The notes under the pieces were generated by a model, which saw nothing but the letters and a program-made list of their open reading frames with translations, made no database searches and was not told the origin of the DNA. Shown here piece by piece: positions 3,281-40,666 of a stretch of 64,000 bases of DNA. Source of the DNA: a phage; the NCBI GenBank assembly GCA_021537435.1, contig GCA_021537435.1_3050.1; one strand, given 5' to 3'. Both the position numbers and the translations under genes were made by a program. How positions within the stretch are numbered: the first letter of the stretch is position 1; every line of letters begins with the position of its first letter.

Positions 3281-3783
3281 TTAAAAATATTTTTTAAAAC
3301 TCATCATAACTTTATCATCAACATCATTATCAATCTGTGCTACAAGGTAAGATGACAGTTCTACTTCTTGTGGCGCGGATTGAACATTATCAGAATTAAG
3401 ATATTCACGAATCCAAGGATACGGATGTTTAACCGGAGCATCAGTAATTGGGCATGGAAGACCGCACTGTTTCATACGAGATACAGTTAAGTAATCAATA
3501 AAGCTCCACATGCTATTTGTATTTAATCCAGGAACATCGCCATCTTTAAATAAATGAACTGCCCAGTCTTTTTCTTGACGGTTAACTTCCATGAAAATAT
3601 CAACTGCTTCTTGTTCACACTCTTGAGCAATTTTAACCCATTCATCGCCATCAGTACCAGATTGAAGTTGACGAATAATATATTGGGTGCCTTTAAGGTG
3701 AAGCTGTTCATCGCGTGCAATGAACTTCATAATCTTGGCATTACCTTCCATGATTTCCATGTTTTTATGGAAGTTGAAAGTAC
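3281..3783 (-). CDS. nrdB: ribonucleotide reductase small subunit, exon 2
   Basis: in-frame ...TFNFHKNMEIMEGNAKIMKFIARDEQLHL... to stop; R2 C-terminal half; exon sizes sum to 388 codons. Confidence 0.85.
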
Positions 3784-4873
3784 CGTTATGTTCGATTGAG
3801 CTCGCTAATTCTCAATCCGTTCTCTTATGAACTGCTACATATTACTATGCAGACCAGACTATATCACAATCCCAGAGGGATTCTCCCCATTTCGAGTCGC
3901 TTGACCCTACGTCCGAAGACTAGTCGTTGAACCTTGCTTTGCAATTGTCGCCGTGCCATCGTTTATATGTTGATGGTGATAAATCTTTCTTATCACAATA
4001 TGGACAATTCAATTGAATTCTATTTGGATTTAATTTACATCTGTCATTATGTTTTAGATAAAATCCAGGACCTTTACCAATGTGACCACAGAAATCACAT
4101 GTGATTTCTTTTTGTGCAGGATGGGTCCCGTTCTTAACCATTTCTAATGTTTTTGCTGATGTTCTTTTCTTATGGTCTTCTGATAAGAAATGATGTGAAC
4201 CGTCATTTACCCGTTTTGATTGAGTTTCTGACTGCATTTTACCACCGCAAAATACATGAGTACCTTCTTTTATAGCTGCAATATTACGTTCTTTAACTTT
4301 TGCAATATGCTCAGCTTGTTGAAAATTATGTATACCTAATGCAACTCTATTTAAATTAGATTTACGCTGTATTTCACCATCTAAAAGATGAAATGTACCA
4401 TTTTCTATCTTAGATTTAATAGAGGCAATATTTTTAGCTCGTACTTCAGGGATATTAAAAATCTGGATTTCTCTAGATTTTGCGGCTTTAGAAGCTAATT
4501 CAGAAATTTCTTCAGGAGAATATTTCATTCTAAGCTTTATAGCATGACAAGCCTGGTAATCTTTTTGAGCTAAATGTATATCATAATGTTCCTGTATAGA
4601 AAGGCACATCAAATTATCTAAATCATTATTTTCACGGTTACCGTCTTTATGATGGATTTCGTATGTTCTTCCATCAGAATCTTTAGGTATAGGTCCGTTA
4701 GCATCTATCCAAATTTTTCTATAGTTCAATTGTGCATCCTCTTAAAAGTATAATCATATTTATATTATACTAATTAAAGGTGCAAGCAAAACCTTGGCTG
4801 CTAGTTTTCCATAAAGGACTTTCCAGCAATTAAAGGAGTTTTCGATAAACGTTACCGTTTAAAGGCGCATTTT
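3784..4873 (-). ncRNA. group I self-splicing intron in nrdB (about 1090 nt) carrying I-TevIII ORF
   Basis: NrdB reading frame interrupted after ...RFYVSFA plus split Cys codon; exon 1 ends in T and intron ends in G; HNH ORF inside. Confidence 0.7.
3920..4729 (-). CDS. intron-encoded HNH homing endonuclease I-TevIII, full length (269 aa)
   Basis: N-terminal HNH motif EIHHKDGNRENNDLDNLMCLSIQEH; C-terminal Cys-rich zinc finger; inside nrdB intron. Confidence 0.8.
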   Translation of the reverse strand: MNYRKIWIDANGPIPKDSDGRTYEIHHKDGNRENNDLDNLMCLSIQEHYDIHLAQKDYQACHAIKLRMKYSPEEISELASKAAKSREIQIFNIPEVRAKNIASIKSKIENGTFHLLDGEIQRKSNLNRVALGIHNFQQAEHIAKVKERNIAAIKEGTHVFCGGKMQSETQSKRVNDGSHHFLSEDHKKRTSAKTLEMVKNGTHPAQKEITCDFCGHIGKGPGFYLKHNDRCKLNPNRIQLNCPYCDKKDLSPSTYKRWHGDNCKARFND

Positions 4874-5537
4874 ACGCAAAAGATACATAAAAACGAATAG
4901 CTTCCAATGCGTTGATTACATGGAGGCAAAGGTAAAGAGATTTCATCAGATCTCGTTTAGCTCTTTGCTCAACGTCTTTATCAGCTAGAATTAGACCTTG
5001 GTCTTTATAATATTCAACCATGTCTTTAGCATTTTCCCATTCACGGGTTTTAACCAAGACATCATCATAATAGCGACCGATAGATTCAGCACGTTTCATG
5101 ATAGCTTCATCTAATACAATCTCATCAAATACCTTTGATGGATCAGTATAAAGATTTCGCATGATATGAGTATATGAACGACTGTGAATAGTTTCACTAA
5201 AAGTCCATGTAGCAACCCATGTATCAAGGCTTGGGTCTGAAATTAATGACATAAGTACAGCAGATGGCGCACGACCCTGAATGCTATCCAAAAGTGATTG
5301 ATACTTCAGGTTATTAGTAAAAATATTCTGCTGATACTGAGGAAGTTTATTAAATTGTGCAGCATCCATCATCAAGTTTACTTCTTCAGGACGCCAGAAA
5401 AATGATAATTGCTTTTCAGTCAAATCTTCAAAAACTTTATGGCGTTGAATATCATAACGCGCAATACCAAGACCTGAACCGAAGAACATAGGTTCTTTTA
5501 AAACATCAACTGGATTTGTATTAAAAACTGTAGACAT
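4874..5537 (-). CDS. nrdB: ribonucleotide reductase small subunit, exon 1
   Basis: MSTVFNTNPVDVLKEPMFFGSGL...LHVINALEAIRFYVSFA; R2 iron-centre region. Confidence 0.85.
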
Positions 5538-5571: not shown

Positions 5572-6363
5572 TCACATATTATGTATAAGCACTTCGGTCT
5601 GAAATGATGCACCCTTCTTTTGCTTCCTATACATGGTTTCAAAATATTCAATTTTGAAATTATTAGAAAGGGCCCAATCTTTTAAAATATAATTATTAAT
5701 ATCGTCTGATAGATTATTAGTGATAATAAATTTAGACTTCGATTGTTTAATTTTGTCTAATAATTCTAATTCATCCTTTTCTTCCCAGCCTGAATATTTA
5801 AATTTAGTAGAAAGATACGGCGGGTCAATGAATAAATTTTTGTTTTCAAAATCCAAATCTCTGAATGATTTATTACTAAATGTAAATCGGTGCTGTCTAT
5901 TTTTAAATTCAGAAAATTTATCCTGCTGAGACTTATTAAAAGAAGTTCTGGAATACTTGGCTCTATTGGCGAAAGCCGCGTTATAATTCCCATTACTAGA
6001 AAATCGGATTAACGAACTGAATGAAAATAAATGTAGAACATAAAGATATAATCCGTTTTTGGTTTTATCGTATTCTTTTGACAGATTATAAAAAGGTGCT
6101 GAATCTTTGTCATTCAAATTAAAATCTTCAATAATTTTAACTATATCATTAATTGAAGATGATTTCATCTTTTTATACATGTCTATAAGAGGAGTATTAA
6201 TATCATTACATATAACATCTCTCTGACAATTCATAGAAAATCCAAGACCACCACAAAAAGCATCCAAAACAGGCTTATCGTCAAAGCGGTTTGAAAATTG
6301 TCTAATAAATGGCATATACTTATGTTTTGCACCTGGATATGTTATGGCAGGTAGGTCTTTCAT
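5572..6363 (-). CDS. Dam-family DNA N6-adenine methyltransferase (263 aa)
   Basis: SAM-binding motif DAFCGGLG near N-terminus and catalytic DPPY motif; region visibly AT-richer than flanking nrd genes. Confidence 0.75.
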   Translation of the reverse strand: MKDLPAITYPGAKHKYMPFIRQFSNRFDDKPVLDAFCGGLGFSMNCQRDVICNDINTPLIDMYKKMKSSSINDIVKIIEDFNLNDKDSAPFYNLSKEYDKTKNGLYLYVLHLFSFSSLIRFSSNGNYNAAFANRAKYSRTSFNKSQQDKFSEFKNRQHRFTFSNKSFRDLDFENKNLFIDPPYLSTKFKYSGWEEKDELELLDKIKQSKSKFIITNNLSDDINNYILKDWALSNNFKIEYFETMYRKQKKGASFQTEVLIHNM

Positions 6364-9228: not shown

Positions 9229-9540
9229 TTACACCGCCATTTTTCCTTTCAAGACGCCGTGGGACTGATAATCTTTGAGAACGAAATCTTTAGGCCTGAG
9301 TTTAAGAATGTATTCCAATTGTTCTTTAGTAGAAAGATAGCGGAATTTATAAGGCAATCCGCCTATTACCAGTTCACAAAGCTCTTTAGGTTCACGACGC
9401 AAAATTTCTTTACATTGTTCTACGTGATTCATATAGATATGAGTATTACCACCGGAAAATATCAAATCTCCCGGAATAAGATTACACATCTTAGCTACAA
9501 TATGAACTAACGTAGCATATGATGCAATATTAAATGGAAG
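9229..9540 (-). CDS. td: thymidylate synthase, exon 2
   Basis: LPFNIASYATLVHIVAKMCNLIPGDLIFSGGNTHIYMNHV... to stop; joins exon 1 to give 286 aa. Confidence 0.9.
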   Translation of the reverse strand, partial: LPFNIASYATLVHIVAKMCNLIPGDLIFSGGNTHIYMNHVEQCKEILRREPKELCELVIGGLPYKFRYLSTKEQLEYILKLRPKDFVLKDYQSHGVLKGKMAV

Positions 9541-10556
9541 CATTATGTTCAGATAAGGTCGTTAATCTTACCCCGGAATTATATCCAGCTGCATGTCACC
9601 ATGCAGATCAGACTATATCTCCAACTTGTTAAAGCAAGTTGTCTATCGTTTCGAGTCACTTGACCCTACTCCCCAAAGGGATAGTCGTTAGGCATTTATG
9701 TAGAACCAATTCCATTTATCAGATTTTACACGATAAGTAACTAATCCAGACGAAATTTTAAAATGTCTAGCTGCATCTGCTGCACAATCAAAAATAACCC
9801 CATCACATGAAATCTTTTTAATATTACTAGGCTTTTTACCTTTCATCTTTTCTGATATTTTAGATTTAGTTATGTCTGAATGCTTATGATTAAAGAATGA
9901 ATTATTTTCACCTGAACGATTTCTGCATTTACTACAAGTATAAGCAGAAGTTTGTATGCGAACACCGCACTTACAAAACTTATGGGTTTCTGGATTCCAA
10001 CGCCCGTTTTTACTTCCGGGTTTACTGTAAAGAGCTTTCCGACCATCAGGTCCAAGTTTAAGCATCTTAGCTTTAACAGTTTTAGAACGTTTCTTAATAA
10101 TTTCTTCTTTTAATGGATGCGTAGAACATGTATCACCAAACGTTGCATCAGCAATATTGTATCCATTAATTTTAGAATTAAGCTCTTTAATCCAAAAATT
10201 TTCTCGTTCAATAATCAAATCTTTCTCATATGGAATTTCTTCCAAAATAGAACATTCAAACACATTACCATGTTTGTTAAAAGACCTCTGAAGCTTTATA
10301 GAAGAATGGCATCCTTTTTCTAAATCTTTAAAATGCCTCTTCCATCTCTTTTCAAAATCTTTAGCACTTCCTACATATACTTTATTGTTTAAAGTATTTT
10401 TAATCTGATAAATTCCGCTTTTCATAAATACCTCTTTAAATATAGAAGTATTTATTAAAGGGCAGTCCTACAATTTAGCACGGGATTGTCTACTAGAGAG
10501 GTTCCCCGTTTAGATAGATTACAAGTATAAGTCACCTTATACTCAGGCCTCAATTA
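9541..10556 (-). ncRNA. td group I intron (1016 nt) carrying I-TevI ORF
   Basis: exon 1 reads ...QRSVDVFLG then in-frame TAA; intron 5' end TAATTGAGGCCTGAGTATAAGGTGACTTATAC... as in T4 td intron; ends ...ATAATG before exon 2. Confidence 0.85.
9688..10425 (-). CDS. intron-encoded GIY-YIG homing endonuclease I-TevI (245 aa)
   Basis: MKSGIYQIKNTLNNKVYVGSAKDFEKRWKRH... GIY-YIG motif; zinc finger and C-terminal DNA-binding region. Confidence 0.9.
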   Translation of the reverse strand: MKSGIYQIKNTLNNKVYVGSAKDFEKRWKRHFKDLEKGCHSSIKLQRSFNKHGNVFECSILEEIPYEKDLIIERENFWIKELNSKINGYNIADATFGDTCSTHPLKEEIIKKRSKTVKAKMLKLGPDGRKALYSKPGSKNGRWNPETHKFCKCGVRIQTSAYTCSKCRNRSGENNSFFNHKHSDITKSKISEKMKGKKPSNIKKISCDGVIFDCAADAARHFKISSGLVTYRVKSDKWNWFYINA

Positions 10557-11105
10557 ACCCAAGAAAACATCTACTGATCGTTGATACCACTGCAAATCCA
10601 AATAGCCATTACGCACATTAAACTGATAGAACATATGACAAGGCGGTAATGCCATATATTTAAGTTCAGCTGGATTCCACGCAGAAACAATTTGTCGCCT
10701 ATCATTCGGCAGTTTTTTAATACGATCAATAACTTCTATAATTTGGTCTACACCACCAAAATCACGCCATTGTTTTCCATAAATTGGACCAAGTTCACCG
10801 CTATGGTATCCTAAATCTTTTGCTTGATTTTCGTAATTTTCATCCCAGACTGTTTTGCCTTGAATTAATGAATCATGCTGAATTAATCGTAAATCATTGA
10901 CATTCGTGCTTCCTGATAAAAACCATATTAACTCAGCAATGCAAGCTTTCCAAGCGAGCTTTTTAGTTGTTACTGCAGGAAAACCTTTGGTTAAATCCCA
11001 ACGCAATTTAGTACCGAACAAAGCAATTGTTCCTGTGCCCGTTCGGTCATCGGTTTCATAGCCGTTTTCAAGAATGTCTTTAATTAAATCTTGGTATTGT
11101 TTCAT
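10557..11105 (-). CDS. td: thymidylate synthase, exon 1
   Basis: MKQYQDLIKDILENGYETDDRTGTGT...PPCHMFYQF... TS active-site Cys region. Confidence 0.9.
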
Positions 11106-11150: not shown

Positions 11151-11498
11151 TCAATACGGTTTAGCATCAAATTTTCTCTCAATTTCAGGCGTGAAATATA
11201 ATTCTTTACCGCGTTTGGAAAAGCGACCAATAATATGATAATTATTCTCATCAAACGTGATATTGCCGATATCCATAGCTTTCAACCAAATATCGATATT
11301 TCTATCCAACTTTATGTCAAAATTCCAATACGGAGAACTATTACCGAAAATACTGCAAGCGGATTCAGTAAAACAACTACTATAAATCTTGTCTTTAGGA
11401 ACTACTAATTGATAGACGCCTTTAATAAACTGAGGACCCTGCCATTTTGGTTGTTTCGCGTCTTTTTCTAATAGAATAGGGTAATAATTAAAATTCAT
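11151..11498 (-). CDS. hypothetical protein encoded by an insertion at the frd/td junction (about 115 aa; alternative GTG start at 11510)
   Basis: ORF MNFNYYPILLEKDAKQPKWQGPQF... fills a 410-bp spacer where T4 frd and td overlap; no motif recognised. Confidence 0.5.
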   Translation of the reverse strand: MNFNYYPILLEKDAKQPKWQGPQFIKGVYQLVVPKDKIYSSCFTESACSIFGNSSPYWNFDIKLDRNIDIWLKAMDIGNITFDENNYHIIGRFSKRGKELYFTPEIERKFDAKPY

Positions 11499-11516
11499 AT
11501 TTTCCGCCACGTGTTA

Positions 11517-12345
<829 letters not shown>

Positions 12346-38845: not shown

Positions 38846-40666
38846 CTATTGGCTCATCCATTCTTTACGAAGATCAGCATTATCTCCCATGAGCATTTCA
38901 AAAAGCTCTTTCCAGTTCTCAGGAAGTTTAACAACATCATATACTGGGTTTTGAATCATCTCACGATATTCAGATTTTTCCAAAGAGCCAAGTCCTTTAA
39001 TATAACGGATGCTATGTTTAGGTAGAGCATCTTTGGCACTCTCATATTCAGCGACTGTATAAAACCATTCTTGTTTTTTACCGACCTGAGCGATGATTAC
39101 AGGAGTTTTGACAAAGCGAATTCTTCCTTGCTCAAACAATTCTGGCCAATTACTAAAAAATCCGAGCAGAGAAGGATAAATGCTTCCTAGACCATCATGG
39201 TCAGCATCAGTCATAATAGCGATATTATGATAATTCAAGTTTTCAGCTTTTTCACCGAGAACTAGACCAGTGATTGCGCAAATATCAAATAGTTCTTTGT
39301 TTTTAAGCATATCTGCATAAGACATACCCCAACTGTTGAGAACTTTACCACGTAATGGATAACCACCATGAAGTTCTTTATCACGAACATCAATAAGATA
39401 TCCGATAGCAGAATCACCCTCAGTCAAGAAAAGAGTAGTGTCAGCATCTTTACCGCAAAGATTCGCTTTAATATGTTTATGAACCTTTGCCTTAGAGGCC
39501 TTTTTAGCTGCTTTAGTTTCAGCTGCTTTTTCTGCTGCCAATTTACGAGCCAAGGCAGCTTCAATAATTGGCATCAAAATAGCTTCATTATTTAGAATAG
39601 CGCGTGAAATCTTTTTAGCATCAAGTTGAATATGACTACGAATTTCACCAAATGGAGAAGTCAAACGCTCTTTAGTTTGAGAGTCAAATCGCATGTTTTT
39701 CATATCGCGAACAAACATAACGATAGTCAAACATTCTTTAACACGTGCTTTAGTTACATCAATTTTGAATTTACGTTTGATTTGTGGAATAAGGTCTTCA
39801 CAAATATCATCCATAACACAGTCAATGTGATGGCCACCATTCTTAGTATGAATGTTATTGACGTACGTCAACTGACGAAAACCATCCGGTGAACGACCAA
39901 CCGCAATAGAACAATTTTCTTGTTCTTGAACAATAGCATGTTCATCATACTGTCGTGCATATTTCTTAAAATTGCCCTGAACCTTTTTACCATTAAAGGT
40001 AAATTGAATATCAGGATAAACAACTGCGAGTGTCTGGAGACGATCCAGTGTAATGTCAAGATAAACTTGGGACAGCTCATTAGTTTCAAATGACATAAAA
40101 TCAGGAATGAAAGTAACACGAGTTCCTTTCCATTTTCCAGGAATATCTTCCCATGATTTATTTTCCATGCCATTTGAACAACGAACTACAATATTATTTT
40201 GACCGTCGCCAGTTTCACCAACAAACATCACAGAAAAAATGTTTGTCAAACTAGAACCAACACCATTCATACCGCCAGTGACGCGTTCTTTATCATCACC
40301 AAAGTTACCACCTGCTTTTGGAATAGTCCATGCAGCAACAGGACCAGGAATTTCTTCACCAGTAGGTGTTTTAACCATAGCCTGTGGAATACCACGACCG
40401 TTATCTTCAACTGTTACCTGATTATTTTTAATAGTAACATTAATTTTATTTGCGAATTTAAACTTAGTACGAATACCTTCATCTACTGAGTTATCGATAA
40501 TTTCATCAATAAGCTTAACAAGACCAGGTACATACTGAACACTTTCCCATTTACCAAACAGAAAGCGCTCATGCATTTCATTAGCAGAAGAGCCAATGTA
40601 CATGCCGCTACGCTTTTTGATATGTTCAATATCGCTCAGAATTTTAATTTCATTCTTAATCATCAC
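38846..40666 (-). CDS. 39: DNA topoisomerase II large subunit gp39 (GyrB-like), single uninterrupted 606-aa ORF
   Basis: GHKL ATPase motifs (DNGRGIP) and TOPRIM region in one frame; no separate gene 60. Confidence 0.9.
   Translation of the reverse strand: MMIKNEIKILSDIEHIKKRSGMYIGSSANEMHERFLFGKWESVQYVPGLVKLIDEIIDNSVDEGIRTKFKFANKINVTIKNNQVTVEDNGRGIPQAMVKTPTGEEIPGPVAAWTIPKAGGNFGDDKERVTGGMNGVGSSLTNIFSVMFVGETGDGQNNIVVRCSNGMENKSWEDIPGKWKGTRVTFIPDFMSFETNELSQVYLDITLDRLQTLAVVYPDIQFTFNGKKVQGNFKKYARQYDEHAIVQEQENCSIAVGRSPDGFRQLTYVNNIHTKNGGHHIDCVMDDICEDLIPQIKRKFKIDVTKARVKECLTIVMFVRDMKNMRFDSQTKERLTSPFGEIRSHIQLDAKKISRAILNNEAILMPIIEAALARKLAAEKAAETKAAKKASKAKVHKHIKANLCGKDADTTLFLTEGDSAIGYLIDVRDKELHGGYPLRGKVLNSWGMSYADMLKNKELFDICAITGLVLGEKAENLNYHNIAIMTDADHDGLGSIYPSLLGFFSNWPELFEQGRIRFVKTPVIIAQVGKKQEWFYTVAEYESAKDALPKHSIRYIKGLGSLEKSEYREMIQNPVYDVVKLPENWKELFEMLMGDNADLRKEWMSQ

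Follow-up and report, generated by a model that had tools for sequence, protein, structure and literature searches.

The nrdB gene of the Tequatrovirus (T4-like phage) analysed here is very probably interrupted by an RB3-type group I intron that carries the gene for the homing endonuclease I-TevIII, and splicing, expression and homing of the element would be expected by homology. The DNA examined, referred to below as the window, is a stretch of 64,000 nucleotides (contig GCA_021537435.1_3050.1). The element in it is an ordinary RB3-type nrdB group I intron with an intact I-TevIII gene, and it is already known: introns of this type were described in 1991 (Eddy and Gold) and their biochemistry was reported in 2007 (Robbins et al., PMC1865063). 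A first-pass annotation of the sequence had placed such an intron at 3784-4873, with a length of 1.09 kb, an internal ORF of 269 aa and an exon sum of 388 codons, and all these values proved exact when they were checked against the raw sequence, the ORF listing and the joined exons. The features of the locus are listed in Table 1, in which the helices are taken from a hand-drawn structure.

Table 1. Features of the nrdB and td loci in the window. Helices P1 to P9.2 are given in intron numbering (5' strand / 3' strand where both are given); all other positions are window coordinates.
Feature	Position	Strand	Remarks
nrdB exon 1	4874..5537	-	664 nt; codons 1-221 and first base of Cys222
nrdB exon 2	3281..3783	-	503 nt including stop
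nrdB group I intron, full-length RB3 type	3784..4873	-	1090 nt; near-identity to RB3 and e11/2
5' ribozyme half	4783..4877	-	P1 to P6a 5' strand
3' ribozyme half	3784..3938	-	P6a'/P6' (936-943) to terminal G1090
I-TevIII ORF	3920..4729	-	269 aa; TTG start; N-terminal H-N-H; two C-terminal zinc fingers
RBS-hiding hairpin of I-TevIII in long (early/middle) transcripts	4733..4784	-	RNAfold; pairing in relatives
TATAAATA, T4 late-promoter consensus	4757..4764	-	within RBS hairpin; motif position
AAGAGGA ribosome-binding site	4737..4743	-	hairpin 3' arm; 7 nt upstream of TTG start
Putative I-TevIII operator	4772..4791	-	20 nt resembling homing-site positions -8..+12
P1	exon -4..+1 with +5..+9		U(-1).G6
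P2	13-18/23-28
P3	36-41/986-991		5' strand / P3'
P4	46-51/70-75
P5	56-58/64-66
P6	76-78/941-943
P6a	85-89/936-940
P7	949-953/1013-1017
P7.1	954-963
P7.2	967-980
P8	992-1006
P9	1022-1039
P9.1	1042-1055
P9.2	1057-1080
td exon 1	11105..10554	-
I-TevI ORF	10425..9688	-	245 aa; GIY-YIG, zinc-finger and DNA-binding domains
td exon 2	9543..9229	-

The identity of the intron was established by comparison with phage records. The 2257-nt nrdB region matched 786 of them, the best being RB3, e11/2 and phages like these, and the intron alone matched 127. Over 1090 nt the intron was 99.4-99.5% identical to the nrdB introns of RB3 and e11/2, and the match is therefore not due to chance. A full-length intron (1090 nt or close) was present in 85 phage records, and 59 records reached an identity of at least 99%; the T4-type form of 598 nt (56% coverage) was found in about 40 records and an ORF-less form of about 300 nt in a few. 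The intact version had been attributed to RB3, which is right as far as RB3 carries it, but with 85 records of the full-length form it is not peculiar to that phage.

Compared with RB3 (X59078, KM606994), the window has the same gene, insertion site, ORF place, TTG start and ORF length of 269 aa at 99.4% identity, and the late promoter, the RBS hairpin and all ribozyme helices are common to both. The two introns differ at 7 of 1091 positions, including an A that is missing from the P5 loop of the window, as in T4, and a change from G to A in P9.2 that turns a G.U pair into A-U. The intron length is 1090 nt both in the window and in X59078, and 1091 nt in KM606994. The original 1991 RB3 sequence X59078 has CCTCTGGG in P8 where KM606994 has CCCTCTGGG; the latter is also present in every other aligned copy except that of the more divergent DCP80, and this mismatch of lengths within one phage is probably an old sequencing difference. 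In e11/2 (vB_EcoM_112), WilhelmHis, phiD1 and other RB3-like Tequatroviruses I-TevIII is identical to that of the window and the intron is 99.5% identical; however, these phages encode the RB3-type NrdB of 392 aa, whereas positions 501-600 of exon 1 in the window are those of T4.

The shorter relatives share the same ribozyme. The T4 intron has the same insertion site and architecture but is only 598 nt long, since it lacks 492 nt of the I-TevIII ORF, which is the whole H-N-H domain, and keeps a C-terminal remnant of 97 aa that is annotated as defective; the T4 ORF had been described as truncated and inactive, and the records agree. Several substitutions, some of them compensatory in P9, separate the 3' half of T4 from that of the window. 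The ORF-less introns of vB_vPM_PD112 (304 nt) and DCP80 (309 nt) consist of the same ribozyme with no endonuclease gene. A heptamer, ACAATTG, occurs in the window both at the ORF start (4733..4727, minus strand) and 27 nt before the stop codon (3948..3942, minus strand), and the introns of PD112 and DCP80 are the exact product expected of a deletion between these two repeats.

Exon 1 of nrdB is a mosaic. Over positions 1-450 it most resembles NR1 and Sf23, over positions 501-600 it matches T4 without a difference, which accounts for an NrdB of 388 aa compared with 392 aa in RB3, and from exon -73 to intron +62 the window is identical to WilhelmHis. Exon 1 differs from that of RB3 at 78 of 676 positions, including a length difference of 12 nt, and its best match as a whole in the phage collection was 93.7%, with the intron at 99.5% to many records. 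At the insertion site the intronless alleles (Sf23, NR1, T4_ev240) read TCTTTCGCAT or TCTTTCGCCT and the intron-bearing alleles all read TCTTTTGCGT; in the window, exon -55..-32 resembles the former and exon -31..-1 the latter. This pattern was first read as the trace of a homing event of its own, recent and with a short tract of co-conversion; the reading was withdrawn, because the sequence from exon -70 to intron +30 is 100% identical in WilhelmHis, Ozark, AV119/120 and G2285, all of which bear the intron. Since the same junction haplotype occurs in other intron-bearing phages, there is no ground for claiming a unique homing event. In IMG/VR, exact-pattern scanning was uninformative: it gave 0 matches to the junction haplotype, and even the generic exon-intron junction matched only 1 contig.

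Taken together with its surroundings, the locus combines a 5' ribozyme half of T4 type with an ORF and 3' half of RB3/e11/2 type in which I-TevIII is intact, a three-way mosaic exon 1 that was not found whole in the phage collection, and a rare Dam-like methyltransferase that takes the place of MobE in the slot between nrdA and nrdB. It is conceivable, although we consider it rather unlikely, that the intron is self-sufficient, with I-TevIII as the sole nuclease acting on nrdB, and that the locus is a record of repeated recombination around the homing site. If this were true, the identity of the element would be unchanged.

The ORF inside the intron had been read as an HNH and zinc-finger protein, and both parts were found: Pfam HNH_3 matched residues 4-48 (E 6e-13, 48.7 bits against a cut-off of 24.8), and two motifs of the form CX2CX12-13HX3C are present at residues 211 and 242. 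The protein aligned with PHROG 12324 'intron-like DNA endonuclease' over positions 1-269 of 269 (E 1.9e-193), and solved structures searched by sequence with I-TevIII gave no match. Truncation relative to RB3 I-TevIII, which had been named as the finding that would speak against a full-length ORF, is absent, as the alignment covers 269/269 aa and the TTG start is the same as in the RB3 annotation. The window protein is identical to that of e11/2 and shares 268 of 269 residues with RB3, the one substitution being Y23 for D23; the other four nucleotide differences from the RB3 ORF are synonymous, which suggests purifying selection.

According to Robbins et al. (2007, PMC1865063), RB3 I-TevIII is an active, dimeric enzyme and gives the nrdB intron of RB3 its mobility. 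In the same study, alanine mutants of eight residues lost cleavage or DNA binding: the RB3 enzyme requires H26, H27, N39 and H48 for cleavage, and the zinc fingers with C211/C214 and C242/C245 for DNA binding (PMC1865063). All eight residues are kept in the window. Y23 lies 3 residues before the catalytic His pair and is the commoner state, and the exact protein of the window is encoded by many phages; tblastn located it in numerous phages of Escherichia, Yersinia, Shigella, Salmonella and Klebsiella.

The signals upstream of the ORF also correspond to those of the characterised copies. The hairpin that hides the ribosome-binding site comprises 18 pairs, which are 99.3% paired across 8 relatives, and its folding energy by RNAfold was -14.9 kcal/mol, compared with -0.7 kcal/mol for a transcript starting just past the late promoter. 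Such a hairpin mechanism has been described for I-TevI, II and III, and middle and late promoters have been mapped upstream of intron ORFs (Edgell et al. 2010 review, PMC2988022); the late promoter and hairpin of the window match this published regulatory scheme. The late-promoter site varies among relatives. U5 lacks 12 alignment columns (9 window bases) over most of TATAAATA, so that only the first three bases are left, PD112 lacks 2 nt at this site, and S16, HY03 and DCP80 have 3-6 extra nt. An alternative hairpin of U5 I-TevIII has been mentioned (PMC2988022). An operator resembling the homing site has also been proposed (PMC2988022), and the minus-strand segment 4791..4772 is a putative I-TevIII operator of this kind. 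It is identical to the phage's own exon junction at 15 of 20 positions and to RB3-type exon 2 at 17 of 20 when counted by eye; 18 of 500 shuffles were as good, and the resemblance is suggestive only.

The enzyme and its signals bear on whether the intron still moves. A copy that splices but is no longer mobile, its enzyme inactive or unexpressed and its persistence due only to vertical descent or to hitch-hiking on neighbouring recombination, in the manner of the T4 copy that MobE mobilises in trans, would agree with the TTG start codon, with Y23 in place of the D23 of the only enzyme tested (RB3), and with the fact that Eddy and Gold originally saw no mobility of the RB3 intron, as recounted in PMC1865063. 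The defunct T4 copy persists through MobE, on which it depends for spread (PMC2790892), and the window phage has no mobE between nrdA and nrdB. However, I-TevIII-dependent homing of the RB3 intron was demonstrated by Robbins et al. (PMC1865063), the eight mutationally defined residues are all intact, the four remaining ORF differences are silent, the promoter, ribosome-binding site and hairpin are preserved, and the same protein occurs in numerous phages that differ in host and place. Loss of mobility is thus considered very unlikely, and an RB3-type intron with an I-TevIII that is predicted to be functional is the preferred reading.

On the minus strand the raw ORFs of the locus are collinear: 5537..4872 (221 aa) is the N-terminal part of NrdB, 4729..3920 the 269-aa ORF and 3760..3281 the C-terminal part of NrdB. 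The minus strand reads ...TCTTTTGCGT|AAAATGCGCC... at 4874|4873 and ...ACATAACG|GTACTTTC... at 3784|3783, or, at greater length, UCUUUUGCGU|AAAAUGCGCC and ACAUAACG|GUACUUUC, respectively. Exon 1 ends in ...GCGU, the last U of which takes part in the U.G pair of P1, and exon 2 begins with GU ACU UUC..., which completes Cys222 and is followed by TFNFHKNMEIMEGNAK. Joining the exons gives 664+503 = 1167 nt, that is 388 codons and a stop. The spliced NrdB matched Pfam Ribonuc_red_sm (PF00268; E 2.4e-37, 129.3 bits) and E. coli R2 (1piy_A; E 2.3e-128, residues 3-384 covered), and the latter alignment is free of gaps at the junction (AIRFYVSFAC|TFNF vs AIRFYVSFACSFAF). The product of the spliced ORF is a full-length R2 protein, the beta subunit of a class Ia ribonucleotide reductase (NrdB).

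When the whole window was scanned with Rfam at the gathering score, no family matched, Intron_gpI (RF00028) included. With relaxed thresholds, Intron_gpI gave a partial match to the 3' half (34 bits, E 1.4e-6, model positions about 100-253), and the 5' half searched alone gave 19 bits (E 0.005, model positions 1-134). The control loci of T4 and RB3, whose introns are experimentally established, also stayed below the gathering score, whereas the natural ORF-less intron of PD112, at 68.6 bits, passed this threshold of 50. If the ORF is left aside, three differences separate PD112 from the window: a single base in the P5 loop, another in P9.2, and 2 nt ahead of the ORF that PD112 lacks. The two cores differ by two bases; within the stretch matched by the model only one base is different, as the P9.2 change lies beyond the model end. 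Because the T4 and RB3 controls missed too and the ORF-less PD112 passed, the miss was put down to the inserted ORF, likely through the roughly 800 nt that it adds in the P6 loop of the model, and was not counted as evidence against an intron.

In the hand-drawn structure, the window sequence builds all core helices P3-P8 and the P3/P7 pseudoknot from standard pairs. In P1, exon GCGU(-1) and A1 pair with U5-G6-C7-G8-C9, which places a U.G wobble at the 5' splice site, and the last intron base is a G (...AACG1090). The ORF runs into the core with its final 19 nt, TAG stop included, and these also serve as P6a', P6', J6/7 and the 5' strand of P7. Pairs were counted in an alignment of eight ORF-deleted introns (window, RB3, T4, PD112, S16, HY03, DCP80 and U5). 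P1-P9.2 and the RBS hairpin together make 90 pairs, and 99.4% of the 718 cells were standard pairs, compared with 36-43% when the partners were slid by 1-3 columns. Compensatory changes on both sides were found at 8 pairs, namely in P2 (3), P5, P7.2, P9 and P9.2 (2); the slid controls had none, and the real structure was equalled by 0 of 500 shuffles. The covariation comes from these five helices, and P3, P4, P6, P7 and P8 had no two-sided change across the eight introns.

Guanosine-dependent self-splicing is established for the nrdB introns of T4 and RB3, and the window agrees with the self-splicing T4 intron at every position from exon -12 to intron +140 (152 nt, 100% identity). P5 has 3 pairs in the window compared with 4 in most relatives, with one A missing in the loop; the idea that this could cripple the ribozyme was rejected, because the self-splicing T4 intron has the same loop. 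The intron is subgroup IA2-like, with P7.1/P7.2 and P9.1/P9.2, and the I-TevIII gene is looped out of P6a. The assignment to group I made in the first-pass annotation is thus borne out by the near-identity to the introns of RB3, e11/2 and T4 together with a P1-P9.2 fold supported by covariation.

That there is no intron at all, and that nrdB is instead a gene in pieces like nrdA of Aeromonas phage Aeh1, which is split by mobE, would be in line with several GenBank records that give two separate 'NrdB' CDSs and a 'hypothetical protein' at this locus, with the TAA stop that exon 1 meets right at the intron start and with the in-frame ATG at 3760 in exon 2. This arrangement, in which a free-standing HNH gene splits nrdB and two separately translated fragments assemble, was rejected as extremely improbable, because the ORF flanks together form an entire group I core, with compensatory changes, and Rfam recognises this core when no ORF is present, both the reading frame and the conserved FYVSFAC|TFNF helix are restored exactly at the junction, a start at ATG 3760 would lose 8 conserved residues, and the T4 intron, the first 140 nt of which are identical to those of the window, is annotated as group IA and has long been established as self-splicing (treated as such in PMC1865063 and PMC2988022, where self-splicing is implied for the RB3 intron also).

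Several neighbouring genes of the window were also noted. Between nrdA and nrdB, 5572..6363 (minus strand) encodes a D12-class N6-adenine DNA methyltransferase of 263 aa (Pfam PF02086, E 5.5e-24; DPPY at residue 180); the same slot holds mobE, a free-standing endonuclease gene, in T4 and RB3, and hef in U5. This methyltransferase occurs in only 9 of 50,697 phage records and has an identity of about 32% with the usual Dam of T4 type. Its closest carriers are vB_Eco_NR1 (99.7%) and T4_ev240, in which the adjoining nrdB is intronless. Between frd (12100..11519) and td, an ORF of 119 aa with a GTG start (11151..11510, minus strand) matched no Pfam family and fell into PHROG 1928, of unknown function (E 9.5e-36); in T4, frd and td abut. 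A single ORF of 606 aa (38846..40666, minus strand) has the GyrB, HATPase and TOPRIM_C domains of the topoisomerase large subunit and looks like a fused form of gene 39, in contrast to the split 39/60 arrangement of T4.

The thymidylate synthase gene td (9229..11105, minus strand) is likewise interrupted by a group I intron, at about 9544..10553, with a full-length I-TevI gene; Intron_gpI of Rfam scored 42.5 bits at 9589..9819, below gathering. Like the nrdB intron, the T4 td intron with I-TevI interrupts a gene of nucleotide metabolism and has its ORF looped out of the ribozyme, and it shares the late promoter and the RBS-hiding hairpin (PMC2988022). The enzymes differ, as I-TevI is a GIY-YIG monomer that cuts 23/25 nt upstream (PMC2988022), whereas I-TevIII is an H-N-H dimer that cuts 14/16 bp upstream (PMC1865063).

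From the near-identity to these characterised copies, we infer how the window copy would be spliced, expressed and mobilised. The pre-mRNA would self-splice at U(-1)|A1 and G1090|G, and the joined exons would encode the 388-aa NrdB. Late in infection, the intron-internal promoter TATAAATA is predicted to yield a short transcript without the 5' arm of the hairpin, which would leave the ribosome-binding site exposed, and I-TevIII would then be made from its TTG start. The dimer would be expected to bind intronless nrdB via its two zinc fingers, and in a mixed infection double-strand-break repair from the intron-bearing allele would transfer the intron, along with some of the flanking exon, to the recipient.

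The element is a further example of a textbook mobile intron and adds nothing new on mechanism. Its main value is for annotation, as the locus is labelled as two 'NrdB' fragments and a 'hypothetical protein' in many deposited genomes; the correct annotation is a joined nrdB CDS (5537..4874 + 3783..3281), an intron feature and I-TevIII. Phage group I introns that bear an ORF are missed by Rfam at its gathering threshold. That the exons are mosaic and the intron between them is nearly invariant agrees with the established traffic of introns and homing endonucleases among T-even phages.
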